A stretch of 64,000 bases of DNA from Verrucomicrobiota bacterium. Lineage in GTDB: Bacteria > Verrucomicrobiota > Kiritimatiellia > UBA8416 > JABMPJ01. Below, piece by piece: positions 1-30,351 of the stretch (position 1 is the first letter of the stretch; each line of letters opens with the position of its first letter). The position numbers and the translations under genes were made by a program. Below the pieces are notes generated by a model. It was given only the letters and a program-made list of their open reading frames with translations, did no database searches and was not told the DNA's origin. The stretch is from positions 1,065 to 65,064 of the forward strand of contig JABGQM010000024.1 of assembly GCA_018648805.1 (NCBI GenBank). The letters are read 5' to 3'.

Positions 1-1198
1 GGCTGCCAGTGCACTGATCAGGCCGGACAACAGCAGTGCCCCGACTGCTTTTCTCGGACCGGACGCGGCGATCGCCCGGTGAAGCAGGCAGTCGACGCCC
101 CACAGCACAGGGACCACCACCGTGACTAGGGCCAGGTACATGCGATGTTCATTGTAGACATTCAGAGTGGGGGCCAGGCTGGATGATGGGGCCAGCAGCA
201 CGAAGAAGGCAAAGCCAAGGAATCCGAGCGGACGCCGCTTGATCGTACCGATCAGGCTGAACACAAACAGGATCGCCAATGGCAGCGCCGGCAGCAGGAT
301 TTCCTGCCAGCCTTGCGAGATGTGGTTGGTGTAGTCGAGCACGAGTCCGCGCGGCCAGAAGGCGAGCCGGAGGTACTTCAAGATGACCAAGGGCTGTGAA
401 GCGGCGTACCTCAGAACTCCGGTAGTGGATGCGTCGCGCGACATCCCTTCAAACGTCGCCGCCACCAGCAGGATCATGATGATCCAGGTTGAGATAAGCC
501 CGAGGTAGAGACCGCGTCGTTGCCGCCAGAGGTGCGCGGGCTTCTGTCCGCTGAACACGTAGTCGTACAGCATCACCAGTATGGGTGCAGTCACCATGCT
601 CTCCTTGGTTCCCATTCCCAGCGCGCAGGCGATCACGGCGATGGTCGGCCAGAGGCGTGGGCGGGTGGTGCTGGAGGCACGGATCGACGCGTAGAGCGTG
701 AGCAGATAGAACATCCCCATCAGCGAGACGGCGCGCTGCACGGTGTAGGTGACCGCCTCCGTCTGCAGCGGATGTACCGCCCACACCATCGCGGCAACCG
801 CGGCGAACGCCGCTGGAACGGCGTGCGGCCGGGACGCCGGCGGCAGGCCCGCGAGGGTCCGCCTCACGATACCGAACAGCAGGAGCGCCGAGGCCAGGTG
901 CACCAGAATATTGATGAGATGAAAGCCCCACGGCGCATCGCCCGTGAGCTGGTAGTTCAGCGCCAGGGAGAGGGCGAGGACCGGGCGCGTATCGACCGTC
1001 GCGCCCGTGTTCCAGAGCGGCAGGCAGAGCGGCTCGGAGAGCGGCCACAGTCGGCGGATATGGGGATTGTCACGGATCGATTCGACATCATCGACCTCAA
1101 AGAACTCCCCCTGCAGACCGCTGGAGAAGGCCAGAATGACGGGAAGGAGGATAAGGAGGAGGGGGAGGAAGCGGTGAAGTTGATGCTTCTTGGTCATA
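1..1198 (-). CDS. TMTC/PMT-like GT-C membrane glycosyltransferase paralog (N-terminal multi-pass domain; C-terminal TPR part lies beyond window edge), partial
   Basis: Reverse-strand translation from ATG at 1198 (MTKKHQLHRFLPLLLILLPVILAFSSG...SIRDNPHIRRLWPLSEP...HLINILVHLASALLLFG...VHPLQTEAVTYTVQRA) is >90% identical to paralog 2531..4492; single frame to window edge; not in ORF track because no stop in window. Confidence 0.7.
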
Positions 1199-1235
1199 CT
1201 TTCTCGTCCGTGCTCATCCACCCATCTCGATTCTG

Positions 1236-1330
1236 ATCAGAGATTAAGGCGAAAGACCAGGGAACCCAAGCACGGATACCTTAATCTTTCGCCTTAATCT
1301 TTTGCCCTGATCTTCTGCCCTGATTTTCTG
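1236..1330. repeat. GATTAAGGCGAAAG hairpin element (family D) + 12-nt tandem (ccctgatcttctg) upstream of paralog 1
   Basis: gattaaggcgaaagaccaggg aacccaagcacggatac cttaatctttcgccttaatc: arms reverse-complementary. Confidence 0.7.
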
Positions 1331-2400
1331 CGCGCCAGATGGTCTGCGATCCAGCGGGCAATCTGACGATTCGCGGGTGCGTTCCAATGTCCATCCGGTG
1401 CCAGCCACTCGCCGCCGTGCGCCAGGTACCCGCGTTCGAGGGGACCATAGAGGTCGAGCAGATCCACACCGGTCTCCTCGAAGGCCTGCCGCATCATCCC
1501 GTAAACGGGCGCATACGGTGCGTTGCGGCGCACATCGTTGATCCCCCGCGCCACGGGCATGGTCACCACGGTCAGTCCGATGTCGTGTTTCTCACACGTG
1601 GCTCTCACCCGAGCCAGTATCAGCCGACTGACCTCAATGGTTTCGTCCGCCTGGACCGGCCTGTCAAGCGTGTCCGGGAGTCGGCCGAAAAGGATGGCGG
1701 CAAGAAAGCAATGGCGGAAGATCCACGGCTGATGAGTGGCCGTCGGCACCGGAACGTTACGGACCGCCAATCCGGCATCGTCCACGTCGAAGTACGGCTT
1801 GGGATGCGTATAGAGGTCAGTCCGGTCACGGACGACGTCCGACGGCAGCATCACCACGAACACCGCGTGATCGGGGTTGAAACCGACCCCCTGCTGCTCC
1901 AGCCGGAGCATCATCTGACCGAAACCGTACGAATTCTCCCCGAAGTTAAGTGCTTCGGTGCCGGGCAGACATGTTTCCAAGAAGGCCGGTACCGTTTGGT
2001 CGTTGTCAACCCACTGCCCCCAGACGCAGGAGTCGCCAAACACGGCAATGCGCGTGATTCCCGAAGCAGGAGAAGGTGCGTAATCGCGAGTGGCGCGCAA
2101 CCCCTGGTTGTTAATTGTCAGCTTGAAGGGAAACAAGGCATCGCCGCGGAGCCCTGGGAGACTGGTCCACCCCAACACCCGGTGATACGTCTCGCCGTTG
2201 GAACGAAAAGCATCGCGCCCCCCGGACTCGGATATCCATTGAGCCACGCCGGTGATGCGCTCGATCTTCCTGTACCGCCAACGCAGGACAAGCTCGGCAC
2301 CAACCAGCACCACTAGCACGGCGAGCAGCACGGTGAGCAGGGCAAACACGCGCCGCTTTCCGCGCGTCGGCGCGTCACTAATGGAGTCGGCTTGTTTCAT
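1294..2400 (-). CDS. SGNH/GDSL-family hydrolase with N-terminal membrane anchor
   Basis: N-terminal TM helix (FALLTVLLAVLVVLVGAELVL); block I IAVFGDSCVWGQ (GDS), block V DGHWNAPAN (DxxH); C-terminal 12 codons read into hairpin repeat D. Confidence 0.65.
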   Translation of the reverse strand: MKQADSISDAPTRGKRRVFALLTVLLAVLVVLVGAELVLRWRYRKIERITGVAQWISESGGRDAFRSNGETYHRVLGWTSLPGLRGDALFPFKLTINNQGLRATRDYAPSPASGITRIAVFGDSCVWGQWVDNDQTVPAFLETCLPGTEALNFGENSYGFGQMMLRLEQQGVGFNPDHAVFVVMLPSDVVRDRTDLYTHPKPYFDVDDAGLAVRNVPVPTATHQPWIFRHCFLAAILFGRLPDTLDRPVQADETIEVSRLILARVRATCEKHDIGLTVVTMPVARGINDVRRNAPYAPVYGMMRQAFEETGVDLLDLYGPLERGYLAHGGEWLAPDGHWNAPANRQIARWIADHLARRKSGQKIRAKD

Positions 2401-2530
2401 TGGAGCATCGGCTCGGTCGCACTTCGCAGCTTGGGTACTTCGGGTTTCATCATTCCTTCAGGCTTCGCGCTTCGCTTGCTACGCCTGGACAAGTGGGTAT
2501 TGGGGTACCTTCCTCCAGAGGCGGACCAGC

Positions 2531-4492
2531 CTATGGCTGGGGGTATTGGGGTATTTCCACCCCTCCCTTTCCCATCATCTCCCTTGTCTTGCGCAGATTC
2601 TCACGTGCCGCATTATAATCCGGCTTCAGTCGCAACGCCCGCTCGAAATGCCGGATCGCGTCGGGAAGCCGGCCGCCGGCCCGGTAGACAATGCCCAGGT
2701 TGTTGTGAGCTTCAGCGAAGTCCGGCTTGAGCCGGACGGCCTGCCGGTAGTGCTCAATCGCTTCGCGGGGGCGGCCCAGCTTCAGCAGGGCGTTGCCCAG
2801 GTTGTAGTGGGCATCCGCCAGGTTCGGCTTGATCCGCACAGCCTCTTGATAGTGGACAATCGCTTCCTGCGGTCGCCCGAGCGCCTCGAGTGCGATGCCC
2901 CAGTTGAAGTGTGCCTCCGCGTGGTCGGGCTCGAGCCGTAGGGCTTCGCTGTAGAGAGGGATCGCCTCCAGTGGGCGGCTCAACTTCAATAGGACATTGC
3001 CCAGGTTGCTGTGAGCGTCTGCCATGCCGGGCTCGAGCCGCAGCGCTTCCTGCAAGTGCAGAACGGCTTCGCGCGGACGTCCCAGCTCCAGCAGGGCATT
3101 GCCCAGATCGTTGTGGGCGGTTGAAGAGTGGGGCCGTTTCTCGACGTTGTCGGTCCAGAATGCCAATGAAGTGCGCCAATCGCGGTTGCGCACGAAGGTT
3201 CCCGTGGCCAGGGCGACTATCAAGGCCGCCGCCAAGAACGCCTCAACGGCTCTGCGTGGGCCGGCCCTGGCGATCCCCCGACGCAGCAGGAGATCAAGCC
3301 CCGCCAGGGCGGAAATCACAACCGTGGCCAACGCCAGGTACATGCGGTGTTCATTGTAGACGTTCAGCGTGGGGGCAATGCTCGACGACGGAGCCAGCAG
3401 CACGAAGAAGGCGAAGCCCAGAAAAGCGACGGGACGCCGCTTGATGATACCGACTAGGCTGAAAACAAACAGAATGACCAACGGAAGCGCCGGCAGCAGG
3501 ATCTCCAACCAGCCTTGCGAGACGCGATTGGTGTAGTCGAGCACGAGCCCGCGTGGCCAGAAGGCGAGGCGCAGGTATTTCAGGATGACCAGGGGCTGTG
3601 ATCCGGCGTAGTGCAGAACGCCCGTACTGGACGCGTCGTGCGCCATCTTCCCGAATGTCGCCGCCACTAGGAGGATCATAATGACCCAGGTCGAGATCAG
3701 CCCGAGGTAGAGGCCGCGGCGTTGGCGCCAGAGGTGGGCGGGCGCCTGTCTACTTGTCTCTGATCCCCCTATGTGGCCTCGCTCTCGGCGAGAGCGGGCT
3801 ACACCCATTGTGCGTCCCTGTAGCCCGCGCTCGCCGAGCGCGAGGCCGCCCCTAAACACGTAGTCATACAGCATCACCAACAAAGGCGCAGTCACCATGC
3901 TCTCCTTGGTTCCCATTCCCAGCGCACAGGCGACGATGGCAATGGCGGTCCAGCGGCATGGGCGGGTGCTGGTGAAGGCGCGAATCGACGCATAGAGCGT
4001 GAGGAGGTAGAACATCCCCATCAGGGAGACGGCGCGCTGCACGGTGTAGGTGACCGCCTCGGTCTGCAGCGGGTGCACCGCCCAGACGGTCGCCGCGACG
4101 GCGGCGAACACCGTCGGCCCGGCGCGCGGCCGGGATGCCTCCGGCAGGGCGGCGAGGGTCCGCCGTGCGATACCGAACAGCAATAGCGCCGAGGCCAGGT
4201 GCACCAGCAGGTTGACCAGATGGAAGCCCCAGGGCGCATCGCCCGTGAGCTGGTAGTTCAGCGCCAAGGAGAGGGCGAGGACCGGTCGCGTATCGACCGT
4301 GGCGCCCGTGTTCCAGAGCGGCAGGCAGAGCGGCTCGGAGAGAGGCCACAGCCGGCGGATATGGGGATTGTCGCGGATCGATTCGACATCATCGACCTCA
4401 AAGAACTCGCCCTGCAGACCGCTGGAAAAGGCCAGAATGACGGGAAGGACGATCAGGAGGAGGGGGAGGAGACGTTTGAGTGGATGTTTCAT
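2531..4492 (-). CDS. TMTC/PMT-like GT-C membrane domain + TPR-repeat protein (paralog 2), with in-frame REP/BIME insertion
   Basis: Conserved N-term YDDxxSIRDNPHIR, HLVNLLVHLA, VHPLQTE(A/S)VTY, MGxK; C-terminal TPR units (AEAHxNLGxAL...). Insertion RGGLALGERGLQGRTMGVARSRRERGHIGGSETS absent from copy 1. Confidence 0.7.
   Translation of the reverse strand: MKHPLKRLLPLLLIVLPVILAFSSGLQGEFFEVDDVESIRDNPHIRRLWPLSEPLCLPLWNTGATVDTRPVLALSLALNYQLTGDAPWGFHLVNLLVHLASALLLFGIARRTLAALPEASRPRAGPTVFAAVAATVWAVHPLQTEAVTYTVQRAVSLMGMFYLLTLYASIRAFTSTRPCRWTAIAIVACALGMGTKESMVTAPLLVMLYDYVFRGGLALGERGLQGRTMGVARSRRERGHIGGSETSRQAPAHLWRQRRGLYLGLISTWVIMILLVAATFGKMAHDASSTGVLHYAGSQPLVILKYLRLAFWPRGLVLDYTNRVSQGWLEILLPALPLVILFVFSLVGIIKRRPVAFLGFAFFVLLAPSSSIAPTLNVYNEHRMYLALATVVISALAGLDLLLRRGIARAGPRRAVEAFLAAALIVALATGTFVRNRDWRTSLAFWTDNVEKRPHSSTAHNDLGNALLELGRPREAVLHLQEALRLEPGMADAHSNLGNVLLKLSRPLEAIPLYSEALRLEPDHAEAHFNWGIALEALGRPQEAIVHYQEAVRIKPNLADAHYNLGNALLKLGRPREAIEHYRQAVRLKPDFAEAHNNLGIVYRAGGRLPDAIRHFERALRLKPDYNAARENLRKTREMMGKGGVEIPQYPQP
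3775..3848. repeat. REP pair (BIME-like) inside CDS 2531..4492, in frame
   Basis: ggcctcgctctcggcgagagcgggctaca...ctgtagcccgcgctcgccgagcgcgaggcc; each REP = GTAG tail + 7-bp stem CGCGCTC/GAGCGCG with 3-nt loop. Confidence 0.85.
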
Positions 4493-4495
4493 CCT

Positions 4496-6460
4496 TCAGC
4501 CTTCATCCTTCATCCCTCTCTTCATCGTCGCCCTCGTCTCCCGCAGATTCCTCTGCGCCGCAGTATAATCCGGCTTCAGTCGCAACGCCCGCTCGAAATG
4601 CCGGATCGCGTCGGGAAGCCGGCCGCCGGCCCGGTAGACAATGCCCAGGTTGTTGTGAGCTTCAGCGAAGTCCGGCTTGAGCCGGACGGCCTGCCGGTAG
4701 TGCTCAATCGCTTCGCGGGGGCGGCCCAGCGCGACCACGGCATTGCCCAGGTTGTAGTGGGCCTCCGGCAGGCCCGGGCTGAGCCGCAGCGCTTCCCGGC
4801 AGTGCTCAGCCGCTTCCCGGGAGCGGCCCAAAGCGTGTAGCGTACTGCCCAGGTTGTTGTGGGCGTCGGCAAAGTCAGGCTTGTGCTGAAGGGCCTCCTC
4901 ATAGTGCAGAATCGCCTGAGCGATGTGCCCCAACGCCTGCAGGGCATTGCCCAGGTTGTGGTGGGCGCGGGCGAAGTCGGGATCGAGCGCCACGGCTGCC
5001 TTAAGATGCTGGGCCGCTTCCGCGTATCGTCCATCCTTCAGCAGGCACCAGCCCACGCCGTTCCGGGCAAACGAACTCTCCGGACGATGGGCGACATTGT
5101 CCTGCCAGATCCGCAGTTCACTGTGATAGTCCCTGTTGCGGGCGTGTGTGAGGCACCCGAGCGCGGCTACGACGGTCAGCGTCAGGCAGCCGCCCAGCAC
5201 GGCCCGCCGTTTCGGATGCGGGGCGAGCTTCCGAATAGCGTATTCAGCGCCAAGAACGGCAAGCATGACGACGGCAGCCAGCGACAGGTACATGCGGTGC
5301 TCAAAGATCGCCTGCCGCATGGGCGCGATGCTCGAGGTCGGCGCCAGGATCAGGAAGAACCACGCGAGCACAAACCCATACCACTTGCGGCGCCACAGGC
5401 CGCGGAACATCACGGCCAGCATGCCCAGGACGGCCAGCCCCGGGAACACGATGCGCGGCCATTGATCCTCCAGCGTCCAGCCGTAGGAGAGCACCAGCGG
5501 CGCGGGCCAGACCGCCAGACGCAGGTACTGCAGCAGAACGAGGGGCTGGGTCAGGGCATAGCGCAGCGGGCTGATGTTGACGAAATCGATCGTTGATTCC
5601 TGCCAGGTGGCGACGATGATCCCGAAGACGATCAGCCAGGTGGAACACAGGGCCGCGTAGAACCGGCCTCGCCCCGGACGTCCGGGGCGGGCTACATGGC
5701 CGCCTCTCTGTAGCCCGCGCTCGCCGAGCGCGAGGCCACCAGGTTTGAGGCCACCAGTGAATACGTAGTCATAGAGAATCACGAGCAGCGGCGCGCTGAA
5801 CATGGTTTGCTTGACCCCCATTCCGATGGCACAGGCGATGACGGCGGCCACGTACCAGCGTCCACCCTTGTCGCTCGTGAACCCACGGATGGAGCAGTAC
5901 ATCGTCAGGAGGAACAGCATGCCCATCAGTGATTCGGCACGTTGCACGATGTAGGTGACGCTCTCGGTCTGCAGCGGGTGCACCAGCCAGATCAGGGCGG
6001 TGGACAGGGCGAGCCAGGTTCCCCTCCTGCGCCAAGGCTCCGGCGGGCAGGCGCTGGATGCATACCGCTCCCGAAACTGCGGCAGGTCCAGCGTGCGCCT
6101 GACGATGCCAAACAGGAGCAGGCCGGCCGCGAGGTGGATCAGCAGGTTGACCAGGTGGTAGCCCCACGGCTCTGGACCGAAGAGCCAGTGGTTTAGGGCA
6201 AAGGAGAGGCTGAGCAGCGGCCGGCCATCCACGGTGACACCGGTGTTCCACAGCGGCAGCGACATGGATTCGCTGAGCGGCCACAGCGCCCGGATATGGG
6301 GATTGTCGCGAATGGAGTCGATATCGTCGAAGAGGAACACGCCGTCGAAACTGTTCCAGTACGCCAGCACCCCCACTAGGATGAGGAGCATGGGAGGGAG
6401 GAGGCGACTCAGCAGTATGTGAGTGTGTGGGTGTGTGGGTGTGTGGGTGTTGCTTTGCAT
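4496..6460 (-). CDS. TMTC/PMT-like GT-C + TPR protein (paralog 3), in-frame REP insertion
   Basis: Same architecture; stop 4 nt from start of paralog 2; loop insertion GGLALGERGLQRGGHVARPGRPGRGRF encoded by REP pair 5666..5737. Confidence 0.7.
   Translation of the reverse strand: MQSNTHTPTHPHTHILLSRLLPPMLLILVGVLAYWNSFDGVFLFDDIDSIRDNPHIRALWPLSESMSLPLWNTGVTVDGRPLLSLSFALNHWLFGPEPWGYHLVNLLIHLAAGLLLFGIVRRTLDLPQFRERYASSACPPEPWRRRGTWLALSTALIWLVHPLQTESVTYIVQRAESLMGMLFLLTMYCSIRGFTSDKGGRWYVAAVIACAIGMGVKQTMFSAPLLVILYDYVFTGGLKPGGLALGERGLQRGGHVARPGRPGRGRFYAALCSTWLIVFGIIVATWQESTIDFVNISPLRYALTQPLVLLQYLRLAVWPAPLVLSYGWTLEDQWPRIVFPGLAVLGMLAVMFRGLWRRKWYGFVLAWFFLILAPTSSIAPMRQAIFEHRMYLSLAAVVMLAVLGAEYAIRKLAPHPKRRAVLGGCLTLTVVAALGCLTHARNRDYHSELRIWQDNVAHRPESSFARNGVGWCLLKDGRYAEAAQHLKAAVALDPDFARAHHNLGNALQALGHIAQAILHYEEALQHKPDFADAHNNLGSTLHALGRSREAAEHCREALRLSPGLPEAHYNLGNAVVALGRPREAIEHYRQAVRLKPDFAEAHNNLGIVYRAGGRLPDAIRHFERALRLKPDYTAAQRNLRETRATMKRGMKDEG
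5666..5737. repeat. REP pair inside CDS 4496..6460, in frame
   Basis: gggctacatgg...ctgtagcccgcgctcgccgagcgcgaggcc. Confidence 0.85.
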
Positions 6461-6545
6461 GACAAACGATTAAGGTGAAAGATTAGGGCGAAAGATTAGG
6501 AAACCCAAGCACGGATACCTTAATCTTTCGCCTTAATCTTTTGCC
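6461..6545. repeat. Family D hairpin element, occupies whole 5' leader of paralog 3
   Basis: gattaaggtgaaagattagggcgaaagattagg aaacccaagcacggatac cttaatctttcgccttaatcttttgccctaatc; ends 5 nt before ATG (minus strand). Confidence 0.75.
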
Positions 6546-8606
6546 CTAATCCTCCACTCTCCCTTCCCCCTCCCCAATCATCTCCCTATCGATCATGCCC
6601 AAGTCTCGCAAAGCGATGCTCAGGTTGTTGTGGGCTTCGGCGTGGTCCGGCTTGAGCTGTAAGGCATGCCGGTAGTGCTCGACAGCCTCCCGCGGTTGCC
6701 CCAGTGCCAGCAGGGCGTTGCCCAGGTTGAAGGACGCTTCCGCCATATCAGGCTTGATCCGCAGCGCTTCCCGGCAGTGCGGGATGGCTGCCTGCAGGTG
6801 ACCCAGCGTCAGCAAGGCGTTGCCCAGGTTGTTGTGGGCTTCGGCGTGGTCGGGCTTGAGCTGCACGGCCTGCTGATAGTGGGGTATGGCTTCCTGCAGG
6901 CGCCCTGCCGCTGCCAGTGCCACCCCCAGGTTGTAGTGGGCCTCTACCCGGCCCGGATCGAGCTGCAAGGCCTGTTGATAATGTGATATCGCATCCTGTG
7001 GCCGCCCTGTCGCGTAAAGAGCCATACCCCAGTTGTTGTGGGCCTCCGCGTAGTCGGGTTTGAGCCGCAGCGCTTCCCGGTAGTGCGGGATGGCTTCCAG
7101 GGGCCGGCCCAGCGCATGCAAGGCGTTGCCCAGGTTGTTGTGGGCTTCGACGTGGTCGGGCTGGATCCTCAGGGCGGACCGGAGATGCCTGACCGCTTCC
7201 GCGTATCGTCCCTCATTCCGCAGGGAACAGGCCAGATTGTTGCGGGCAAAATGGCTCTCGGGGCAATGGGCGACATTGTCCTGCCAGATCCTCATCGCAC
7301 TGTGATAGTCCCGGTTGCGGTCGTGCGTGCGGTATCCCAACACGATCACGCTTGCCAGCGCCAGACAGCCGCCCACTGCGGCCCGTCGTTTCGGATGCGT
7401 GGCCAACTTTCGAACAGCGTATTCAGCGCCAAGAACGGCAAGCATGACGACGGCAGCCAGCGACAGGTACATGCGGTGCTCAAAGATCGCCTGCCGCATG
7501 GGCGCGATGCTGGAGGTCGGCGCCAGGATCAGGAAGAACCACGCGAGCACAAACCCGTACCACTTGCGGCGCCACAGGCCGCGGAACATCACGGCCAGCA
7601 TACCCAGGATGGCGATAGCCGGAAACACGATGCGCGGCCATTGATCCTCCAGTGTCCAGCCGTAGCTCAGCGCCAACGGCCAGGGCCAGATCGCTAAACG
7701 CAGGTAGGTTAGAAGTACGAGCGGCTGGGTGAGGGCATAGCGCAGCGGGCTGATTGTGACGAAATCGCTCGTCGACTCTTTCCAGGTGAGCCCGATGATC
7801 CCGAATACGATCAGCCAGGTGGAGCACAGGGCCGCGTAGAACCGGCCTCGCGCTCGGCGAGCGCGGGCTACAGGGGCCGCTCTCTGTAGCCCGCGCTCGC
7901 CGAGCGCGAGGCCACCAGGTTCGAGGCCACCAGTGAATACGTAGTCATAGAGAATCACGAGCAGCGGCACGCTGAACATCGTCTGCTTGACCCCCATGCC
8001 GATGGCGCAGGCGAGGACCGCCGCCACGTGCCAGCGTCCGCCCTTGTCGCTCGTGAACCCACGGATAGAGCAGTACATGGTCAACAGAAACAGCATGCCC
8101 ATCAGTGATTCAGCACGTTGCACGATATAGGTGACGCTCTCGGTTTGCAGCGGGTGCACGATCCAGATCAGGGCGGTGGCCAGGGCAAGCCAGGTCCCCC
8201 TGCTGCGCCAAGGCTCCGAAGGGCAAGCACTGCGTGCAAACCGCTCACGAAAGCGGGGCAGCGCAAGTGTGCGCCTGATCACCCCGAACAGCAGCAACCC
8301 GGCCCCGATGTGAATCAGCAGATTGACAAGATGGTAGCCCCACGGTTCCGGGCCAAAGAGCCAGTGGTTCAGGGCGAAAGAGAGGCTGAGCAGTGGCCGC
8401 CCGTCCACGGTCAACGCCGAGCTCCACAGCGGTAGCGACATGGCCTCGCTCAGCGGCCAGAGCTGGCGGATGTGGGGGTTATCGCGAATGGAGGCCAGGT
8501 CGTCGTAAACGAACACGCCGTCAAAGCTGCTCCAATAGACCAGCACACCCGCCAGGATGAGGAGGAGGGGGGGAAGGAGACGTCTTGTTTGCTGGAGGTC
8601 TTTCAT
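6546..8606 (-). CDS. TMTC/PMT-like GT-C + TPR protein (paralog 4), in-frame REP insertion
   Basis: Same motifs; insertion GGLALGERGLQRAAPVARARRARGRF encoded by REP pair 7855..7922. Confidence 0.7.
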   Translation of the reverse strand: MKDLQQTRRLLPPLLLILAGVLVYWSSFDGVFVYDDLASIRDNPHIRQLWPLSEAMSLPLWSSALTVDGRPLLSLSFALNHWLFGPEPWGYHLVNLLIHIGAGLLLFGVIRRTLALPRFRERFARSACPSEPWRSRGTWLALATALIWIVHPLQTESVTYIVQRAESLMGMLFLLTMYCSIRGFTSDKGGRWHVAAVLACAIGMGVKQTMFSVPLLVILYDYVFTGGLEPGGLALGERGLQRAAPVARARRARGRFYAALCSTWLIVFGIIGLTWKESTSDFVTISPLRYALTQPLVLLTYLRLAIWPWPLALSYGWTLEDQWPRIVFPAIAILGMLAVMFRGLWRRKWYGFVLAWFFLILAPTSSIAPMRQAIFEHRMYLSLAAVVMLAVLGAEYAVRKLATHPKRRAAVGGCLALASVIVLGYRTHDRNRDYHSAMRIWQDNVAHCPESHFARNNLACSLRNEGRYAEAVRHLRSALRIQPDHVEAHNNLGNALHALGRPLEAIPHYREALRLKPDYAEAHNNWGMALYATGRPQDAISHYQQALQLDPGRVEAHYNLGVALAAAGRLQEAIPHYQQAVQLKPDHAEAHNNLGNALLTLGHLQAAIPHCREALRIKPDMAEASFNLGNALLALGQPREAVEHYRHALQLKPDHAEAHNNLSIALRDLGMIDREMIGEGEGRVED
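7855..7922. repeat. REP pair inside CDS 6546..8606, in frame
   Basis: ggcctcgcgctcggcgagcgcgggctacag/ctgtagcccgcgctcgccgagcgcgaggcc, two inverted copies. Confidence 0.85.
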
Positions 8607-10145
8607 CTATAAAAGGGCCGCAGCCTTGGCCTCCTTTTCTATGGCCTCAGCCTGACGGTCCAGCTTCCGCAGGATGACTCCCCACGTCTGCCACACAGTC
8701 GCCTTTTCCGGTTCGAGGGCCGCGGCCTCCCGGCAGAGCGGCAGTGCTTCCTCGTCCCTCCCCAGCGTCGACAAGATCGTGGCAGCACTTATCCTGTACC
8801 CGGCCTTGTCGGGCGCCAATTCGGCCGCTTTCCGAAAGCCCGCCAATGCCGCCTGCAGATCGCCGGTTGCCGCCTGCATGACAGCCAACTCAGCCAACAG
8901 ATCGGGATCGTCCGGCCGCAGGCGCACCGCGTCCTGCAGGTGCTGAAGGCTTTTCTCGGGGTAAGAAGCCTGCAGACACCGCGCCTCACCGATGAGCGCG
9001 TCACTCATATCCTGCCAGCGCGCGTTCGTGCGCTGTGCGACGAACTCGGCCGCCGCAACGGCATCCTCGGTGAACGGTCCAGCGGCCGATGGAACGGCTC
9101 GCTCACCGCCCACCGCCGCCACCACCTCTTTGAGGGCCAGGGCCGCCACGGTACTCCCGGTTTCGTTGGGGTGCCACCCGTCGCCCACCGTGTAGGCGAG
9201 TTTCGGCCCGTTGCCAAGCTTTGTCGCGGCATAGTGTTGACGAAACGCGGGGGCAAGCCGGAAACACGGGATCCCCACCGCGCGGGCAAGCGGTTCAACG
9301 ATCAGGGTGGTGCCGTCCGGCATGAAAGGTATTTCGGTGATCGCGTCGTCCTCGAAGACGGGCCAAACAGCAACGGCCGGCCGAAACCCGTAGATGTCCG
9401 CGAGTCGCCGCAGCAGGGCCAGGCCCTGCACGACGTTGTTCGATCCGATCGCGGTCTTATTCCGCACTACCGGATCGCGCCGCATGCCGAAACTCGTCCA
9501 TCCGGCACTCACCAGCGTGGCGCGGAACAGGTGCGAACGGGCGAACAATGCCCGGAAGGCTGGCGAGGGCACGTCCTTGTCGGCAAGGGCCTCGACAATG
9601 GACGAATTAAAGTTCTCAAAATCGTTCCAAAAGAAGACGACGATCACGATGTCGGGTTCGAATTTCAGCCCTTTAACGCGCAGCAGTTCGACTTCGGCCA
9701 AGGTACAGTAGCCTCCGACGCCGAAGTTCAGTACCTCGGTCTTGCCGTCCGGGTAGAGCTTCTCGAGTTCACGATTCATGACATCGTTGACGTCGGAAAT
9801 CTCGGTGCTCTCGACGATAGAGTCGCCCAGCAGAATCACCCGGCGCACCCCCGGCGGCTTTGCGATGGTGCGCTCGATGTCGCGCTGCCCGTGGGCATTG
9901 ATCCTTTCGCAAGTAAAGTCGTGATCCGGACTCGGGTTGTAGTAGTCAGGCTTCAGCTCGTAGCCGAGGATGGGATTGTCCGAACGCCGGTAGATGGACT
10001 CGTGATCCTCGAAGGACACGGTGATACGCCGGAACGGCGGGGCGAGCTTGAGCGCCATGGCCAGGATCTCCCCCGCTCCGAGGGCCACTACAACCGCGAG
10101 GATCAGCAGCAGGAGGCGAAAGAGGAGGCGCGCGTTCTTGGTCAT
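8607..10145 (-). CDS. SGNH/GDSL hydrolase domain + C-terminal TPR protein, membrane anchored
   Basis: TM anchor LLFRLLLLILAVVVAL; ILLGDSIVES (GDS), GDGWHPNETG (DxxH); C-terminal TPR-like repeats; stop abuts start of paralog 4. Confidence 0.65.
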   Translation of the reverse strand: MTKNARLLFRLLLLILAVVVALGAGEILAMALKLAPPFRRITVSFEDHESIYRRSDNPILGYELKPDYYNPSPDHDFTCERINAHGQRDIERTIAKPPGVRRVILLGDSIVESTEISDVNDVMNRELEKLYPDGKTEVLNFGVGGYCTLAEVELLRVKGLKFEPDIVIVVFFWNDFENFNSSIVEALADKDVPSPAFRALFARSHLFRATLVSAGWTSFGMRRDPVVRNKTAIGSNNVVQGLALLRRLADIYGFRPAVAVWPVFEDDAITEIPFMPDGTTLIVEPLARAVGIPCFRLAPAFRQHYAATKLGNGPKLAYTVGDGWHPNETGSTVAALALKEVVAAVGGERAVPSAAGPFTEDAVAAAEFVAQRTNARWQDMSDALIGEARCLQASYPEKSLQHLQDAVRLRPDDPDLLAELAVMQAATGDLQAALAGFRKAAELAPDKAGYRISAATILSTLGRDEEALPLCREAAALEPEKATVWQTWGVILRKLDRQAEAIEKEAKAAALL

Positions 10146-12409
10146 TTCTGTATCTCCCCTCTCATCTCCCTCGTCTCCCGCAGATTCTCGACCGCTACAG
10201 CATAATCCGGATTCAATCGCACAGCCTCTTCGAAATGCCTGATCGCGTCCGTAAGCCGGCCGCTTTGCTGGTAGAGAGCACCCAGATTGTTGTGGGCCGA
10301 GGCGTCGGCCGGATTGATGCGCACCGCCTGCCGGCCGCGGGCGATGCCCTCATCGGTAAGGCCGAGATGGTGTAGAGCAACGCCCCAGTTCTTGTGGGCG
10401 CCAGCGTAATCCGGCTTGAGCTGCACGACCTGCCGGTAATGCTCGATGGCTTCCCGGGAGCGTCCCAATGCCAGCAGGGCATTGCCCAGGTTGTAGTGGG
10501 CGTCCACCAACGCCGGTTCGATCCGCACGGCCACTTGATAATGAGCAAGCGCGTCCTGCAACCGTCCTGCCGTCTGCAGTGCGATCCCCCAGTTGAAGTG
10601 GGTCTTTGCATCGCCGGGGTTAAGACGTAGCGCCTCCCGGTAGTGCCGAATGGCTTCCAGGGGTTGGCCCATCGCCAGTAGGGCATTGCCCAGGTTGAGA
10701 TGGGCCTCCCCCAGGCCCGGCTTGATCCGTAACGCTTCCCGGGAGTGCTCCGCAGCTTCCCGGGAGCGCCCCATCACCTGCAGAGCGTGACTCAGATTGC
10801 TGTGGGCTTCAGCGTAATTCGGCTGGATCCGCAGGGCCTGCTGATAGTGGACAATCGCCTCTTGCGGCCGCCCCAGGGCGTTAAGCGCAATCCCCAGGTT
10901 GTAGTGCGCCTCTGCGTAGTCCGGGCTGATCCGCAGCGCTTCGCGACAGTGCTCGAGCGCTTCCCGGGAGCGCCCCGAAGCCAGCAGGGCATTACCCAGG
11001 TTGTTGTGGGCCACATGACTCCCGGGACGATAGGTGACATTGTCCTGCCAGATCCCGATTTCGCTGTGATAGGTCCTGTTGCGACCGTGCGTCAGGACGC
11101 CCAACACGATCATGACCGCCATCGTCAGGCAGGCGCCCAGCGCCACACGTTGTTTCGGGATTTTGACGAGCTTTCGAATGGCAACGTCACCCAGCATGAC
11201 CGCCAACGTGACAACGGCAGCCAGCGAGAGATACATGCGATGTTCGAAGATCGCCTGGCGCGTGGGCGCAACGCTGGAGGTCGGGGCCAGGATCAGGAAG
11301 AACCATGCGAGCACAAACCCGTACCACTTGCGGCGCCGGATGCCGCGGCACATCACGGCCAGCAGGCCCAGGATGGCCAACGCAGGGAACACGATGCGAT
11401 ACCATTGATCCTCCATCCCCCATCCATAAGTGAGCACCAGCGGCGAGGGCCAGACCGCCAGACGAAGGTAATGAAGCAGGACAAGGGGTTGGGTAAGGAG
11501 ATAGCGCAGTGGGCTGATGTTGACGAAATCGCTCGTTGATTCCTGCCAGGTGAGCCCAATGATCCCGAAGACGATCAGCCAGGTCGAACAAAGGGCCGCG
11601 TAGAATCGGCCTCGCGCTCGGCCCATCCTTCGCGCTTCGCTGGCTACGGAGGGCAAGCGAGCGCGGGCTACAGAGAGTGGGCCTTGTAGCCCGCGCCCCG
11701 CAGAGCGGGGTAAACTCGCCGCTTGCCCCGCCTTGGCGGGGAGCGCGAGGCCACCAGGTTCGAGGCCACCAGTGAATATGTAATCGTAGAGAATCACGAG
11801 TAGCGGCGCGCTGAACATGGTCTGCTTGACCCCCATGCCGATGGCGCAGGCGAGGACCGCCGCCACGTGCCAGCGTCCACCCTTGTCGCTCGTAAACCCC
11901 CGAATCGAACAGTACATGGTCAGGAGAAACAGCATCCCCATGAGCGACTCGGCGCGTTGCACGATGTAGGTCACGCTCTCGGTCTGCAGCGGATGCACCA
12001 GCCAGATCAAGGCGACGGCAAGCGATAACCAGGTCGGGTTGCCCGGGCATCGCTCGCGAAGGCGCGGCAGGGCCAGTGTACGCCTGACCACCCCGAACAG
12101 CAGCAACCCGGCCCCGATGTGGATCAGCAGGTTGACTAGGTGATAGCCCCACGGTTCCGGGCCGAAGAGCCAGTGGTTCAGGGAGAAAGAGAGGCTGAGC
12201 AGTGGCCGCCCGTCCACGGTCAATGCCGAGCTCCACAGCGGTAGCGACATGGACTCGCTAAGCGGCCAGAGCAGGCGGATGTGGGGGTTATCGCGAATGG
12301 AGGCCAGGTCGTCGTAAACGAACACGCCATCGAAACTGTTCCAGTACGCAAGCACTCCTGCCAAGATGAGCAGGAGGAAGGGAAGCCAGCGCTTGAGTGG
12401 ATGTTTCAT
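10142..12409 (-). CDS. TMTC/PMT-like GT-C + TPR protein (paralog 5), long in-frame REP/BIME insertion
   Basis: Same architecture; ~57-aa insertion LALPAKAGQAASLPRSAGRGLQGPLSVARARLPSVASEARRMGRARGRF encoded by REP cluster 11608..11752. Confidence 0.7.
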   Translation of the reverse strand: MKHPLKRWLPFLLLILAGVLAYWNSFDGVFVYDDLASIRDNPHIRLLWPLSESMSLPLWSSALTVDGRPLLSLSFSLNHWLFGPEPWGYHLVNLLIHIGAGLLLFGVVRRTLALPRLRERCPGNPTWLSLAVALIWLVHPLQTESVTYIVQRAESLMGMLFLLTMYCSIRGFTSDKGGRWHVAAVLACAIGMGVKQTMFSAPLLVILYDYIFTGGLEPGGLALPAKAGQAASLPRSAGRGLQGPLSVARARLPSVASEARRMGRARGRFYAALCSTWLIVFGIIGLTWQESTSDFVNISPLRYLLTQPLVLLHYLRLAVWPSPLVLTYGWGMEDQWYRIVFPALAILGLLAVMCRGIRRRKWYGFVLAWFFLILAPTSSVAPTRQAIFEHRMYLSLAAVVTLAVMLGDVAIRKLVKIPKQRVALGACLTMAVMIVLGVLTHGRNRTYHSEIGIWQDNVTYRPGSHVAHNNLGNALLASGRSREALEHCREALRISPDYAEAHYNLGIALNALGRPQEAIVHYQQALRIQPNYAEAHSNLSHALQVMGRSREAAEHSREALRIKPGLGEAHLNLGNALLAMGQPLEAIRHYREALRLNPGDAKTHFNWGIALQTAGRLQDALAHYQVAVRIEPALVDAHYNLGNALLALGRSREAIEHYRQVVQLKPDYAGAHKNWGVALHHLGLTDEGIARGRQAVRINPADASAHNNLGALYQQSGRLTDAIRHFEEAVRLNPDYAVAVENLRETREMRGEIQK
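11608..11752. repeat. REP/BIME cluster (3-4 units) inside CDS 10142..12409, in frame
   Basis: contains gcgggctacagagagtgggccttgtagcccgcgccccgcagagcggggtaaactcgccgcttgccccgccttggcggggagcgcgaggcc. Confidence 0.8.
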
Positions 12410-12412
12410 CCT

Positions 12413-14455
12413 TCAGCCCTCATCCTTCATCCTTCTCGTCTCCCGCAAATTCTCTCGCGCCACACTGTACTCCGGTTTCAGTCGCAGCGCCTCTTCAAAA
12501 TGCCTGATCGCATCCGGGAGCCGGCCGCTTTCCTGATAGATGGCACCCAGGTTGTTGTGGGCCGAGGCGTCGGCGGGATTGATGCGCACCGCCTGCAGGC
12601 CGTGGACGATGGCCTCATCGTTGCGGCCCAGGTAGAGCAGCGCGACGCCCCAGTTTTTGTGGGCACCGGCGTAGTCCGGCTCACGCAGCAAGACCTGCCG
12701 GTACTGCTCGATCGCTTCCTGTGGTTGCCCCAGCGCCAGCAGGCGATTGCCCAGGTTGTAACGGGCGTCTACCAGGTCCGGGTCGATCCGCACGGCCTTC
12801 CGATAGTGAGACAGTGCGTCCCCCGGCTGCCCTCCCGCCTCAAGTGCGACCCCGTAGTTGTAAAGGGCCTCCGCGTGGCGGGGGTTTAGTCGCACAGCTT
12901 CGCGGTAGTGTTGCATGGCTTCGCGGAGGTCGCCCAGCGCCTGTAGGGCATTGCCCAGGTTGTTGTGGGCATCCGCGTCCATCGGGTCGATACGTAGCGC
13001 TTCCCGGCAGTGTTCGGCCGCTTCGCGGGAACGCCCCAGCGCCTGCAACGCATGGCCCAGGTTATTGTGGGCAACATGGCTCTCGGGTCGATGGGTGACA
13101 TTGTCCTGCCAGATCCGCAGTTGACTGTGATAGTCCCGGTTGCGATCGTGAGTGCGGTATCCCAACACGATCACGCTTGCCAGCGCCAGGCAGCCGCCCA
13201 CTGCGGCACGTCGTTTCGGGTCCGTGGCGAACTTTCGAACAGCGTACTCAGCGCCAAGAACGGCAAGCATGACAGCTGCCGCCAGCGACAGGTACATGCG
13301 ATGCTCGAAGATGGCCTGGCGCATGGGTGCGATGCTGGAGGTCGGGGCCAAGATCAGGAAGAACCACGCGAGAACGAATCCGTACCATTTGCGGCGGACT
13401 ATGCCGCGGAACATCACGGCGAGCATACCCAGGATGGCCAGAGCAGGAAACACGATGCGGGGCCATTGATCCTCCAGCGTCCAGCCGTAGGACAATACCA
13501 GCGGCGAAGGCCAGACCGCCAGGCGCAGGTACTGCAGCAGAACGAGGGGCTGGGTCAGGAGATAGCGCAGCGGGCTGATGCTGACGAAATCGCTCGTCGA
13601 TTCCTGCCAGGTGGCGACGATGATCGCAAAGACGATCAGCCAGGTCGAGCAAAGGGCCGCGTAGAACCGGCCTCGCGCTCGGCCCATCCTTCGCGCTTCG
13701 CTGGCTACGGAGGGCAGGCGAGCGCGGGCTACAGAGAGCGGGTCCTGTAGCCCGCGCCCCGCGGAGCGGGGTAAACTCGCCGCTTGCCCCGCCTTGGCGG
13801 GGAGCGCGAGGCCATCGGTGAATATGTAATCGTAGAGAATCACGAGTAGCGGCGCGCTGAACATGGTCTGCTTGACCCCCATCCCACAGGCACAGGCGAG
13901 GACGGTGGCCGCGTACCAGCGGCCACTCTTCTCGCCTCTGAGTCCCCGAATCGCGCAGTACATCGTCAGCAGGAAGAGCAGCCCCATCAGCGATTCGGCG
14001 CGCTGTACGATGTAGGTTACGCTCTCGGTCTGCAGGGGGTGGACCAGCCAGATCGCTGCCGTGGCCATGGCAATCCAACAGCCACTGCCCTCATACCGCT
14101 CGCGAAACTGTGGAAGATCAAGCGTGCGCCGGACCACTCCGAAGAGCAGCAGCCCGGCCGCGATATGAATCAGAAGGTTGACCAGATGGTAGCCCCGGGG
14201 CTCCGGACCGAGCAGGGCGTGGTTCAGGGCAAAGGAGAGGCTGAGCAGCGGCCGGCCATCCACGGTCATCCCCGTGCTCCACAGCGGCAGCGACATGGAT
14301 TCGCTCAGCGGCCACAGTCTACAGATGTGTGGGTTATCCCGGATGGAGTGGACGTCGTCGTACAGGAACACACCATCGAAGCTGTTCCAATACGCCGCCA
14401 CCCCCACCAGGATAAGGAGGAGGAAGGGAAGCCAGCTCTTGAGCGGATGTTTCAT
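12413..14455 (-). CDS. TMTC/PMT-like GT-C + TPR protein (paralog 6), in-frame REP/BIME insertion
   Basis: Same motifs; insertion identical in type to paralog 5 (REP cluster 13669..13813). Confidence 0.7.
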   Translation of the reverse strand: MKHPLKSWLPFLLLILVGVAAYWNSFDGVFLYDDVHSIRDNPHICRLWPLSESMSLPLWSTGMTVDGRPLLSLSFALNHALLGPEPRGYHLVNLLIHIAAGLLLFGVVRRTLDLPQFRERYEGSGCWIAMATAAIWLVHPLQTESVTYIVQRAESLMGLLFLLTMYCAIRGLRGEKSGRWYAATVLACACGMGVKQTMFSAPLLVILYDYIFTDGLALPAKAGQAASLPRSAGRGLQDPLSVARARLPSVASEARRMGRARGRFYAALCSTWLIVFAIIVATWQESTSDFVSISPLRYLLTQPLVLLQYLRLAVWPSPLVLSYGWTLEDQWPRIVFPALAILGMLAVMFRGIVRRKWYGFVLAWFFLILAPTSSIAPMRQAIFEHRMYLSLAAAVMLAVLGAEYAVRKFATDPKRRAAVGGCLALASVIVLGYRTHDRNRDYHSQLRIWQDNVTHRPESHVAHNNLGHALQALGRSREAAEHCREALRIDPMDADAHNNLGNALQALGDLREAMQHYREAVRLNPRHAEALYNYGVALEAGGQPGDALSHYRKAVRIDPDLVDARYNLGNRLLALGQPQEAIEQYRQVLLREPDYAGAHKNWGVALLYLGRNDEAIVHGLQAVRINPADASAHNNLGAIYQESGRLPDAIRHFEEALRLKPEYSVARENLRETRRMKDEG
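13669..13813. repeat. REP/BIME cluster inside CDS 12413..14455, in frame
   Basis: near-duplicate of 11608..11752 cluster. Confidence 0.8.
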
Positions 14456-14500
14456 CCTTCAGCTTTCATCCTTCATCCCTCATCCCTCATCCCTCATCCC
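14452..14500. repeat. Heptanucleotide tandem repeat (GAGGGAT)4-GAAGGAT spanning stop codon of paralog 7 and RBS/start of paralog 6
   Basis: minus-strand reading: agagggatgagggatgagggatgagggatgaaggatgaaagctgaaggATG; 2-3-unit versions at 4488..4520 and 12405..12440. Confidence 0.75.
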
Positions 14501-18574: not shown

Positions 18575-18720
18575 CTGTAGCCCGTCCCGATTGCGAAACG
18601 CATCGGGACCAAGCGCGAGGCCCTCCCTGTAGCCCGCTCTCGCCGAGAGCGAGGCCGCTCTGTAGGTGGGCAGAGCTCTTGAGCATCCTGCCTCGCGCTC
18701 GGCGAGCGCGGGCTACAGGA
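18575..18720. repeat. Intergenic REP cluster
   Basis: four GTAGCCCG/CGGGCTAC units in alternating orientation. Confidence 0.8.
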
Positions 18721-21899: not shown

Positions 21900-21929
21900 T
21901 GGTTTCTATCAAACCCACGCACGCCTGGC

Positions 21930-22223
21930 CAGCGCGGGCTACGTAGCCCAGAGTGAAGTTGGCCGGTCCGCATCCCGCATGGCCCTCCCAGTAGCCCGCT
22001 CTCGCCTGCCCTCCGTCTTGTCCTCCAAAGCTCGCAGAGCGACGGAGGAAGCCAGCGAAGCGCGAAGGATGGGCCGAGAGCGAGGCCGCTCTATGATGGT
22101 GCAGAGCTCTTAAGCATCCTGCCTCGCGCTTGGCAAGCGCGGGCTACATAGCCCAGAGTGAAGTCACCCGGTCCGCATCCTGCATGGCCCTCCCTGTAGC
22201 CCGCGCTCGCCGAGCGCGAGGCC
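21930..22223. repeat. Intergenic REP/BIME array (about six units with a ~90-bp composite unit duplicated at 21932 and 22138)
   Basis: gcgcgggctac(g/a)tagcccagagtgaagt...ctgtagcccgcgctcgccgagcgcgaggcc. Confidence 0.8.
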
Positions 22224-22345
22224 TCCCGGAAGATTACCTCGGAAGAATACGCAAACGCTCTGGGATGCTCTGGGACTGAAACACCCATTGCGTAGCGACA
22301 GGAACAGTGTTAGAGTTACAACCAATGGGTACGAGGTCGGGTGAC

Positions 22346-22639
22346 ATGATGCAATACGATTTCGAGTGGGACCCCGAGAAGGCTAGTCAGAACAGGGGGA
22401 AGCACGGCGTCACCTTCGACCAGGCCGCTGGAGTTTTTCATGACCCCAGGGCAGCATCGCTCTATGACACGGAACACAGCGAGACGGAAGACCGCTGGAT
22501 AACCATGGGTCTCTCGGCAGCAGGAGGCCTGCTGGTGGTGCACCACACATACTAGGAAATCGATGACAGCCGTGTGCGGATCAGAGTATTCTCCAGTCGC
22601 AAGGCGACACCTGAAGAGATCAGGCAATATACGGAATAG
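22346..22639 (+). pseudogene. brnT: BrnT-family (DUF497) toxin interrupted by an in-frame amber stop at 22553-22555
   Basis: MMQYDFEWDPEKASQNRGKHGVTFDQAAGVFHDPRA...LVVHHTY*EIDDSRVRIRVFSSRKATPEEIRQYTE: same frame on both sides of TAG; the downstream part is the canonical BrnT C-terminus. Confidence 0.7.
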
Positions 22640-22642
22640 GCC

Positions 22643-22843
22643 ATGAAGAAACAGTATGACTTTTCTACAGCGACGCGTGGTAAATTCTATCATCCGGATG
22701 CCCGGTTGAACCTTCCGGTATACCTGGAGGAAGAGGTGCGGCAGTTTGTTGCAGTGATTGCCGAGCGTAAGCACTCCGACGTGAATGAGGTCGTGAACGC
22801 CCTGCTTCGGTCCGATATTGGCTTGGCCAAGGCCATGCAGTAA
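22643..22843 (+). CDS. brnA: BrnA-family antitoxin
   Basis: MKKQYDFSTATRGKFYHP... 66 aa, directly after brnT remnant, typical BrnA N-terminus. Confidence 0.65.
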   Translation: MKKQYDFSTATRGKFYHPDARLNLPVYLEEEVRQFVAVIAERKHSDVNEVVNALLRSDIGLAKAMQ

Positions 22844-22860: not shown

Positions 22861-23030
22861 CTGTAGCCCGCCCCGCAGATGCAGGGCTTAACGTCGCCCA
22901 TTGGCCTCGCGCTTGGCAAGCGCGGGCAACATGCATCAGCTCCCCTGTAGCCCGCTCTCGCCGAGAGCGAGGCCGACTCCAGGTGGAAGCCTTGCCCTCC
23001 ATCATCCTGCCTCACGCTCGCCGAGCGCGG
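22861..23030. repeat. Intergenic REP cluster
   Basis: ctgtagcccgccccgcag...ctgtagcccgctctcgccgagagcgaggcc...cctcacgctcgccgagcgcgg. Confidence 0.75.
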
Positions 23031-28012: not shown

Positions 28013-28178
28013 GCCCCCTCCGGCACGCTCGTGACGATCAGGTAAGGCGCAAGAATCCCTGAGAAAAGGGTGAAGTGAATCACGAATGGGGTGGGGCATC
28101 TGATGCACCACCCCTCGTGTTATAGGTCCCCAAAATCGGACGCTAGCTCGACCGCCGCCCTGTCTCTCCCGCTCCCTG
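28013..28178. repeat. Direct repeat copy 2 (~90% identical to 25262..25420)
   Basis: ...cgctcgtgacgatcaggtaag...gggtgaagtgaatcacgaatggggtggggcatctgatgcaccacccctcgtgttataggtccccaaaatcggacgctagctcgacc...ctccctgtagccc. Confidence 0.75.
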
Positions 28179-30332: not shown

Positions 30333-30351
30333 AGGCGCAGTGTGGCAGATG

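Follow-up and report, generated by a model that had tools for sequence, protein, structure and literature searches.

A tandem paralog array with in-frame REP pairs

The stretch analysed here (hereafter the window) is 64,000 nucleotides (nt) of contig JABGQM010000024.1 from assembly GCA_018648805.1 of a Verrucomicrobiota bacterium, and its subject is a set of repetitive extragenic palindromes (REPs) that lie in frame inside six neighbouring protein-coding genes. The window has a G+C content of 61%, and positions 1-16699 of its minus strand hold a tandem array whose open reading frames (ORFs) share an N-terminal, polytopic membrane domain of ~440 residues followed by 5-9 TPR repeats. Six of these paralogs, c1 to c6, carry REPs at the same position, whereas c0 next door and the plus-strand paralog c9 have none at the corresponding loop (Table 1).

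In all six, two GTAG-tagged REPs in inverted orientation, their GTAG ends pointing towards each other, lie two codons past the motif YDY(V/I)F, in the same frame and free of stops, and read G-L-A-L-G-E-R-G-L-Q ... V-A-R-A-R-R-A-R-G. The REP unit is GTAGCCCGCKCTCGCCGAGMGCGAGGC, with the GTAG head and 10-bp bulged GC stem that characterize GTAG-type REPs and bacterial interspersed mosaic elements (BIMEs). Searching the window with GTAGCCCGCKCTCGCCGAGMGCGAGGCC at ≤3 mismatches gave 26 matches, with none in shuffles and 0 expected, and a wider pattern found 36 REP units in the 64 kb, 24 of them between ORFs and 12 making up the six pairs in c1-c6. The in-gene segments are genuine members of this genomic REP family, as was claimed in the original prediction, which had been made from the letters alone and had placed a REP pair at 3775-3848 of c1 with counterparts at the same position in all six paralogs. 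Its figure of 27 to 57 extra residues does not agree with the net gain over the canonical loop, which is 12 to 42 residues (c1 33, c2 18, c3 17, c4 42, c5 37, c6 12).

Folding of the in-gene dimers gives hairpins of -60 to -95 kcal/mol with z-scores of -5 to -10 (c1 -60.6 kcal/mol, z -6.2; c3 -80.4, z -10; c4 -94.7, z -5.4), and the empty sites in c0 and c9 fold no better than shuffles. Counting relatives on other contigs, this single loop of one paralog family is filled in at least 11 copies. The kept frame and the selection on the genes described below suggest that the REP segments are probably translated.

Table 1. Coordinates of the paralogs, REPs and other repeats, given as window positions except for P0063.
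Feature	Position	Strand	Remarks
c0	1-1197	-	5' part of REP-free paralog, truncated by window edge
c1	2531-4492	-	predicted GT-C and TPR paralog with REP element; ORF of 653 residues
c2	4496-6460	-	REP-bearing paralog
c3	6546-8606	-	REP-bearing paralog
c4	10142-12409	-	REP-bearing paralog
c5	12413-14455	-	REP-bearing paralog
c6	14480-16699	-	REP-bearing paralog; protein used for structure model
c9	48813-51170	+	paralog; TM6-TM7 loop (49734-49826) without REP
c1 REP pair	3775-3802 and 3820-3847	- and +	0 mismatches to GTAGCCCGCKCTCGCCGAGMGCGAGGCC
c1 in-frame insertion, 99 nt	3750-3848	-	arm 3820-3847 (+), spacer, arm 3775-3802 (-), 25-nt tail 3750-3774
c2 REP pair	5666-5737		30-nt variant arm 5666-5695 and 27-nt arm 5710-5736
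c3 REP pair	7844-7913		arms perfectly complementary (30 nt, 100%)
c4 REP pair	11609-11751		63-nt and 66-nt long forms
c5 REP pair	13670-13812		63-nt and 66-nt long forms
c6 REP pair	15952-16021		perfect arms
Sequences across junctions of the REP-coded segment			YDYVFTDGLALGER.. and ..ARRARGRFYAG
P0063	L003 4900-6933		on another contig of the same MAG as c1; both c1-insert junctions present
Intergenic REP sites, first five	18577-18716; 21923-22222; 22904-22973; 28178-28243; 29475-29657		
Intergenic REP sites, other five	30353-30507; 32279-32347; 35207-35295; 38247-38335; 44261-44389		
Intergenic REP dimer	32278-32348		same sub-type as c1 insert; reference copy
RAYT	29682-30404	-	REP-associated tyrosine transposase
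REPs 3' of RAYT	29475-29658		51-nt form 29475-29525 and 27-nt form 29631-29657
REPs 5' of RAYT	30352-30507		three, alternating orientation
Second repeat family, clusters	49490-49615; 51258-51446; 55898-56024		first in c9, other two intergenic

The REP family and its RAYT

Three compensatory stem variants occur among the REPs (GCGCTC/GAGCGC, GCTCTC/GAGAGC and GCGCTT/AAGCGC), and the units take structural forms of 27, 30, 45, 51, 63, 66 and 96 nt, the long ones having exchanged the 3-nt loop for extra hairpin modules. The long arms of c4 and c5 (66 and 63 nt) and the 30-nt arm of c2 are such structural forms and not products of decay. In the window and related contigs the 66-, 30-, 45- and 96-nt forms also occur between genes (the 30-nt form at 16046-16075 of contig L003), the 51-nt form is exclusively intergenic, and the 63-nt form stands only within genes, though it is contained in the intergenic 96-nt form. 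Pairs lie at nine intergenic sites of the window besides those in the six paralogs, and related metagenome contigs hold ~150 units in 225 kb. Spacers measure 12-17 nt (in a few cases 48-68 nt) in dimers whose GTAG ends point inward and ~32-35 nt in those whose ends point outward, while the alternating triplets at 30352-30507 and 44261-44390 are BIME-like. The spacer between the arms of c4 and c5 (11672-11685, 13733-13746) is the reverse complement of that in c2, c3 (7872-7885) and c6 (15980-15993), a reversal that amounts to a flip/flop of the hairpin loop and likewise relates the intergenic dimers at 32279 and 44320.

A REP scan of 185,579 species-representative genomes, a set that leaves out the source species, matched only a metagenome-assembled genome (MAG) labelled Victivallales, whose intergenic dimer (L007 2720-2802) has its GTAG ends outward and one arm with the stem variant GCTTTC/GAAAGC. 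A protein search with a 46-residue concatenate of the REP-coded peptide gave no scored match.

The window also encodes a REP-associated tyrosine transposase (RAYT), with 79.2 bits to NCBIfam REP_Tyr_transpos (cutoff 80, E 2.8e-22) and 22.4 bits to Pfam Y1_Tnp (cutoff 23). Its best match in the PDB is 4er8_A, the E. coli TnpA-REP, to which both its HUH motif (HLH) and its tyrosine motif (HYIRQNPV) align. The same REPs lie on both sides of the gene, the arrangement known for RAYTs, and the claim that a classical GTAG REP occurs together with its RAYT in the same window holds. One of these, the REP at 30480-30507 on the minus strand, provides with its GTAG head (30504-30507) the TAG stop of a membrane-protein ORF (30504-31568, minus strand), a use of GTAG that Di Nocera et al. 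noted for other REP families (PMC3733652). We infer that the RAYT mobilises the REPs.

The REP-free loop as the ancestral state

At the site, c0 reads YDYVF-SGQK-PAHLWRQRRG, with the empty site between 548 and 547 in the loop segment 478-570, and c9 reads YDALFISDSFRAALTKRWR; both keep the canonical 14-residue loop. Comparison of c0 with c1 shows one clean 99-nt gap, with no target duplication visible at the c1 junction, and elsewhere the two are 83% identical in DNA and 84% in protein, below the >90% first stated for them. A search with the c6 membrane domain returned >7000 homologs, and the best 120 were aligned. The segment from APLLV..YD to ..TW measures 41 residues (in a few 40-42) in ~100 of these 120, and within this set longer versions are confined to the closest relatives from the same population, every one with REP-coded sequence. 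Filled and empty homologous sites, the sign of mobility used for REPs and their RAYTs, are found here in c1 against c0 and in the ~100 empty-loop homologs.

Because the loop has a fixed length in ~100 of the best 120 homologs, the REP-free loop is ancestral and the REP segments are derived insertions. This agrees with the original prediction that the interruption is an insertion, and it goes against REP-free c0 being the derived copy or the segment being native sequence in the homologs of all relatives.

Function, fold and topology of the interrupted genes

The interrupted paralogs could be pseudogenes or split genes with accidental long ORFs, the REP segment lying outside any working protein. 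Spurious long ORFs are common at 61% G+C, and a REP dimer leaves two of three frames open in either orientation, which would suit such an origin. We nevertheless regard it as extremely improbable. Pairwise comparison of the REP-bearing copies gave synonymous divergence (dS) of 0.47-0.79 with ratios of nonsynonymous to synonymous divergence (dN/dS) of 0.16-0.25, and dN/dS is ~0.2 on either side of the insert. The loop differs in length by +36, +51, +54, +78, +87, +90, +99, +111, +126 and +144 nt, all of which keep the frame; these changes represent at least eight independent indels, for which the chance of all keeping the frame is ~1e-4. The filled copies also retain the conserved blocks downstream and the residues that are invariant across the family, and the structure model described below is confident and continuous on either side of the loop. 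Since the genes are under purifying selection and every length variant keeps the frame, they look functional, as had been supposed for them on the strength of the retained frame and downstream blocks. Homologous genes occur in the MAGs GCA_018692835.1 and GCA_018673455.1 and in JGI and ENA metagenome assemblies; c1 is identical to P0048, found in GCA_018692835.1 and in a JGI contig, and the full-length form of c0 is close to P0077 (394 of 399 residues match). With the same genes present in several independent assemblies, a chimeric assembly is unlikely.

An AlphaFold2 model of c6 built from 79 sequences reached a predicted local distance difference test (pLDDT) score of 94.4 and a predicted template modelling (pTM) score of 0.90. 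Apart from the termini, confidence drops only at residues 226-238, where the first REP arm and spacer form a disordered coil with pLDDT ~57; in the second arm (HVARARRARGR) the model extends the following helix at its N-terminal end. The model supports a GT-C membrane fold, and with it the glycosyltransferase label at the level of fold. In Pfam, c1 matches TPR families and, weakly, PMT_2 (PF13231; c1 25.2 bits, c9 20.0, gathering cutoff 26.1). PF13231 is among the precomputed matches of several homologs, JGI labels the proteins as protein O-mannosyl-transferase (PMT), and a conserved DD pair, with D45 nearly invariant, is a candidate for the acidic motif that enzymes of this class have in the first extracytoplasmic loop; such enzymes transfer glycosyl groups from a lipid-linked donor. 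The hosts of the REPs are predicted to be PMT-like GT-C glycosyltransferases with a C-terminal, periplasmic TPR domain.

A hydropathy window alone did not resolve the transmembrane (TM) helices, and the topology was taken from the AlphaFold2 helices and a charge count. With 11 model helices and the N-terminus inside, the conserved DD and the TPR domain come to lie on the outer side and the TM6-TM7 loop with the REPs on the inner side. Lysine and arginine make up 13 of 50 residues in the inside loops and 8 of 138 in the outside loops. The topology check proposed along with the original prediction thus puts the REP loop on the K/R-rich side, which is probably the cytoplasmic one.

Number of insertion events and gene conversion

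When a neighbour-joining tree is built from the membrane domain minus the loop, the copies that carry REPs fall into two separate clades, and each of these has relatives that are REP-free. Clade A comprises c2-c6 with P0006 and P0008-P0013 and has c9, P0019 and P0014 as REP-free sisters, and clade B comprises c1 and P0063, with c0/P0077 and P0053 as REP-free relatives. The exception is P0015, a REP carrier that the tree joins to the REP-free P0016 and P0018; its placement is uncertain. The inserts of the two clades also differ. The clade B element leaves the native loop intact and carries in c1 a 25-nt tail homologous to sequence flanking the intergenic dimer 32279-32347, with which it also shares the combination of arm variants, and P0063 differs by a 21-nt in-frame loss that takes out exactly the first arm's hairpin. 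In clade A the element has another spacer and no tail, and has displaced ~10 native loop residues, which favours two insertions. Within the array, c2-c6 (4496-16699) are mosaic, with tracts of 92-98% DNA identity that swap partner every few hundred bases; gene conversion among the paralogs is therefore frequent. The most likely history has about two insertion events, whose products tandem duplication and gene conversion then spread and reshuffled. The original prediction had elements inserted into six paralogs: six do carry REP pairs, but the pairs would trace to about two events and not six, and in c2-c6 the pair replaced native residues and was not simply added to them.

A single insertion into one ancestral paralog, with all other filled copies including c1 and P0063 arising by non-allelic gene conversion, is the main competitor to this history, and under it the common junction would say nothing about target choice or repeated tolerance. 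The extensive conversion just described would fit it, as would the C-terminal TPR block, which is identical in c1 and c2, and the left junction, for which the two clades share codon and frame. It is harder to reconcile with the c1/P0063 element, with its own spacer, arm variants and tail matching an intergenic copy, or with a native loop intact in one clade and reduced in the other, and on the right side there is no flanking homology to guide conversion. We consider a single insertion unlikely, though not negligibly so. For the shared left junction under two insertions, the simplest reading is a selective filter, the short loop offering ~14 in-frame positions. A candidate explanation in which the native loop DNA already resembled a REP arm was rejected, as the alignment scores were reached by 304 of 2000 dinucleotide shuffles for c0 and 921 of 2000 for c9.

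Maintenance of the in-gene arms

The arms inside the genes are better conserved than their surroundings. Between c3 and c6 the arms are identical at 56 of 56 positions, whereas identity in the flanks (within 300 nt to either side) is 80%, and 64% at third codon positions; between c1 and P0063 ~1 of 78 nt differs in the element while the flanks are ~87% identical (counted from the alignment). All five clade A copies have the same outer clamps. Among the paralogs the arm forms assort independently, the first and second arm measuring (27,27) nt in c3, c6 and P0006, (27,30) in c2, (66,63) in c4 and c5, (66,27) in P0011, (27,63) in P0010, (66,96) in P0008 and (45,27) in P0015, and c4 is c3-like up to the left REP clamp and c5-like beyond it. 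The genomic REP pool is itself very homogeneous, with one indel-bearing copy among ~150, and the likeliest reason that the arms have not decayed is conversion from this pool.

The same observations could point to co-option, in which the in-gene REPs are kept for a useful hairpin or DNA repeat, acting as a recombination junction that shuffles the N-terminal catalytic and C-terminal TPR halves or as an mRNA element (a translational pause, or a site for RNase III or RNase E) that adjusts the array's expression. The contrast between arms and third codon positions, the identical clamps, the independent assortment of arms with the switch in c4, and the strength of the mRNA hairpins would all suit such a role. 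However, conversion by ~130 near-identical genomic copies is expected to give the same conservation, the same REP also stands in frame in unrelated genes (a spread that Di Nocera et al. count against specific function), and P0063 has lost the hairpin of one arm apparently without harm. We find co-option rather unlikely.

All seven REP forms in the window and in contigs L003 and L008-L062 have lengths divisible by three, and for six independent length changes the chance of this is ~0.0014 if lengths were free. More speculatively, the copies in coding sequence may take an active part in the REP population, kept at consensus, swapping modules with intergenic copies, flipping their spacer and serving as homology junctions that reshuffle the TM1-6 half against the TM7-11 and TPR half, so that being read as codons shapes the element family. 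We hold this to be distinctly improbable as a whole; if true, such shaping would explain the seven lengths divisible by three.

A proposed course of events

Taken together, we consider it quite likely that REP dimers inserted about twice into a tolerated loop and were then multiplied. In a genome rich in GTAG-tagged REPs and with a cognate RAYT, inverted dimers like the REP doublets forming hairpins (REPINs) of other bacteria would have entered the DNA for the TM6-TM7 loop. A dimer would have replaced most of the native 14-residue loop in the ancestor that c2-c6 share with their relatives on other contigs, and in the ancestor of c1 and P0063 a 99-nt unit would have been added with the native loop retained. 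Both may have been tolerated through a length in multiples of three, a stop-free frame (one of two) and a surface loop, and the frame used gives an Arg-rich peptide (..VARARRARG) that would match the positive-inside character of the loop. The interrupted genes remained under purifying selection, and tandem duplication and frequent gene conversion would have carried them into at least three arrays. The arms in the genes have not decayed; they remain at the genomic consensus and exchange forms with other REP copies, always in multiples of three. The insert is presumably neutral, or nearly so, for the enzyme.

Several points weigh against this account. Translation of the REP segments is argued solely from frame conservation and purifying selection. 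The strong mosaicism makes the trees unreliable and the count of independent insertions uncertain, and the mosaic identity profile of c0 fits a position as sister to c1 as well as to c1 with P0063; with the relationship of these three genes mosaic, a precise loss in c0 is formally possible. That both clades use the same codon and frame at the left junction is a little surprising if the events were independent. The RAYT scores fall just under both curated cutoffs, and its part in moving the REPs is a deduction. Finally, the perfect conservation of the in-gene arms may mean that they are not neutral passengers.

Comparison with known systems

In-frame REPs are already known, and from the same phylum. 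Di Nocera, De Gregorio and Rocco (2013, BMC Genomics 14:522, PMC3733652) described GTAG and CGTC REPs within ORFs of several species, the GTAG type in frame and mostly as dimers coding for 20-30 residues, with the top count in Opitutus terrae (Verrucomicrobia), and proposed that such inserts may be neutral, occupying linkers or loops that are flexible. Among the entries of their supplement are two TPR_2 proteins from O. terrae, 715 and 790 residues long, with REPs at residues 167-173 and 184-190. The novelty implied by the original prediction was therefore overstated, and the present locus extends the phenomenon to an uncultured verrucomicrobial lineage and to putative membrane glycosyltransferases. 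As in their catalogue, the REPs here are short GTAG-tagged palindromes, mostly intergenic, with a minority wholly inside ORFs and in frame. The peptides differ (GLALGERGLQ/VARARRARG here, VAGVADPGPG/MGGTPMPRGTG in O. terrae), and particular to this locus are the at least 11 copies filled at one loop, the presence there of nearly all REP forms and the empty paralog next door.

The likeness to Rickettsia palindromic elements (RPEs; Ogata et al. 2000, 2002; PMC10969869, PMC3733652) that had been drawn for these inserts is apt, as those elements also lie in frame in functional genes, at surface positions, and are long preserved. It is a functional likeness only, and size, composition and host set the two apart: RPE-1 is ~100-150 bp and no dedicated transposase is known for RPEs, whereas the element here is a dimer of a 27-nt GC-rich GTAG REP with a RAYT in the window. 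RPE-4 and RPE-6 are CGTC-type REPs according to PMC3733652.

REPIN-RAYT systems (Nunvar 2010, PMC2817692; Bertels and Rainey 2011, PMC3116915; 4ER8) share the GTAG head, the GC-rich hairpin, inverted doublets that fold into long hairpins, compensatory stem variants and a single RAYT gene flanked by its own REPs. Unlike REPINs, which are described as extragenic, one third of the units in the window are coding, the REP loop takes extra hairpin modules (27-96 nt forms) and the RAYT has a longer segment ahead of the HUH motif than the E. coli protein. In-frame fusions of MITEs (miniature transposable elements with inverted repeats), such as ERIC, BOX, RUP, Nezha and those of Anabaena (Delihas 2007, 2011, PMC3184786), are likewise small, non-autonomous, open-frame repeats in or fused to chromosomal ORFs, but MITEs have terminal inverted repeats, target-site duplications and DDE transposases, and the c1 junction shows no target duplication.

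With an adjacent empty copy, the filled paralogs spread over three arrays, the swapping of forms at one loop and a confident structural context, the locus offers an exceptionally clear natural experiment in the tolerance of a protein to a mobile palindrome. It offers leads on whether in-gene REPs are maintained or merely persist, whether they promote recombination among paralogs and whether translation constrains the evolution of a REP family. For annotation, GLALGERGLQ..VARARRARG stretches in proteins of the Planctomycetes-Verrucomicrobia-Chlamydiae (PVC) group should be read as repeat-derived and not as native motifs.

Other in-frame repeats and neighbouring genes

Two unrelated genes from the same population, on metagenome loci, carry the same REP in frame: a GH2 glycoside hydrolase (L034 276-2903), at residues 757-778 between DUF4982 and a C5 domain, and a pectate-lyase-like beta-helix protein (L015 2325-4199), at residues 221-245. 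A loose REP regex applied to these loci gave false positives in unrelated ORFs; candidates with REP-like translations were kept and checked by Pfam, and two of five proved to be real genes with the REP between Pfam domains.

The plus-strand paralog c9, originally described as lacking the element, does lack it in the TM6-TM7 loop but has a different palindromic repeat in frame in the TM4-TM5 loop, where a 219-nt insert contains a four-unit element of a second repeat family (hairpin -73.3 kcal/mol, z -11.6). Its unit is TAGTTCACGACAAAGTTCACG, and the window holds 12 units in three clusters of four, each with two forward and two reverse. Many homologs also have inserts in the TM4-TM5 loop. In the TM2-TM3 loop, a 30-nt indel coding for ACP(S/P)EPWR(S/R)R is present in c2 (6021-6049), c3 (8197-8225) and c9 (49239-49267), absent from c4, c5 and c6, and doubled in P0011. 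No intergenic copies of this ACPSEPWRSR indel were found in the window, leaving a repeat origin unproven.

Within the array, the ORF at 8607-10145 encodes an SGNH/GDSL hydrolase with TPR repeats and is not a paralog of the others. In the same population there are at least three separate arrays of the GT-C and TPR genes (on L003, on L062 and in the window), interleaved with SGNH/GDSL hydrolases, which suggests a large and diversifying set of glycosylation genes, and a YfhO-family gene adjoins one of the arrays. Between the array and the RAYT, small ORFs at 22307-22843, 23445-24106 and 28662-29120 resemble toxin-antitoxin pairs, judged by eye from their translations, and are interleaved with REP dimers; the candidates are a possible BrnT/BrnA-like pair and PIN-domain-like proteins with small upstream partners. 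A third repeat, GATTAAGGYGAAAGATTAGGG, forms inverted pairs in the paralog spacers 1241-1300 and 6468-6551 and downstream of a related gene (L059 2377-2460), and inverted repeats built on CCAATATCCAACAAGGAA lie at 58166-58303 and 59161-59280, one pair having 60-nt arms that are 80% complementary.

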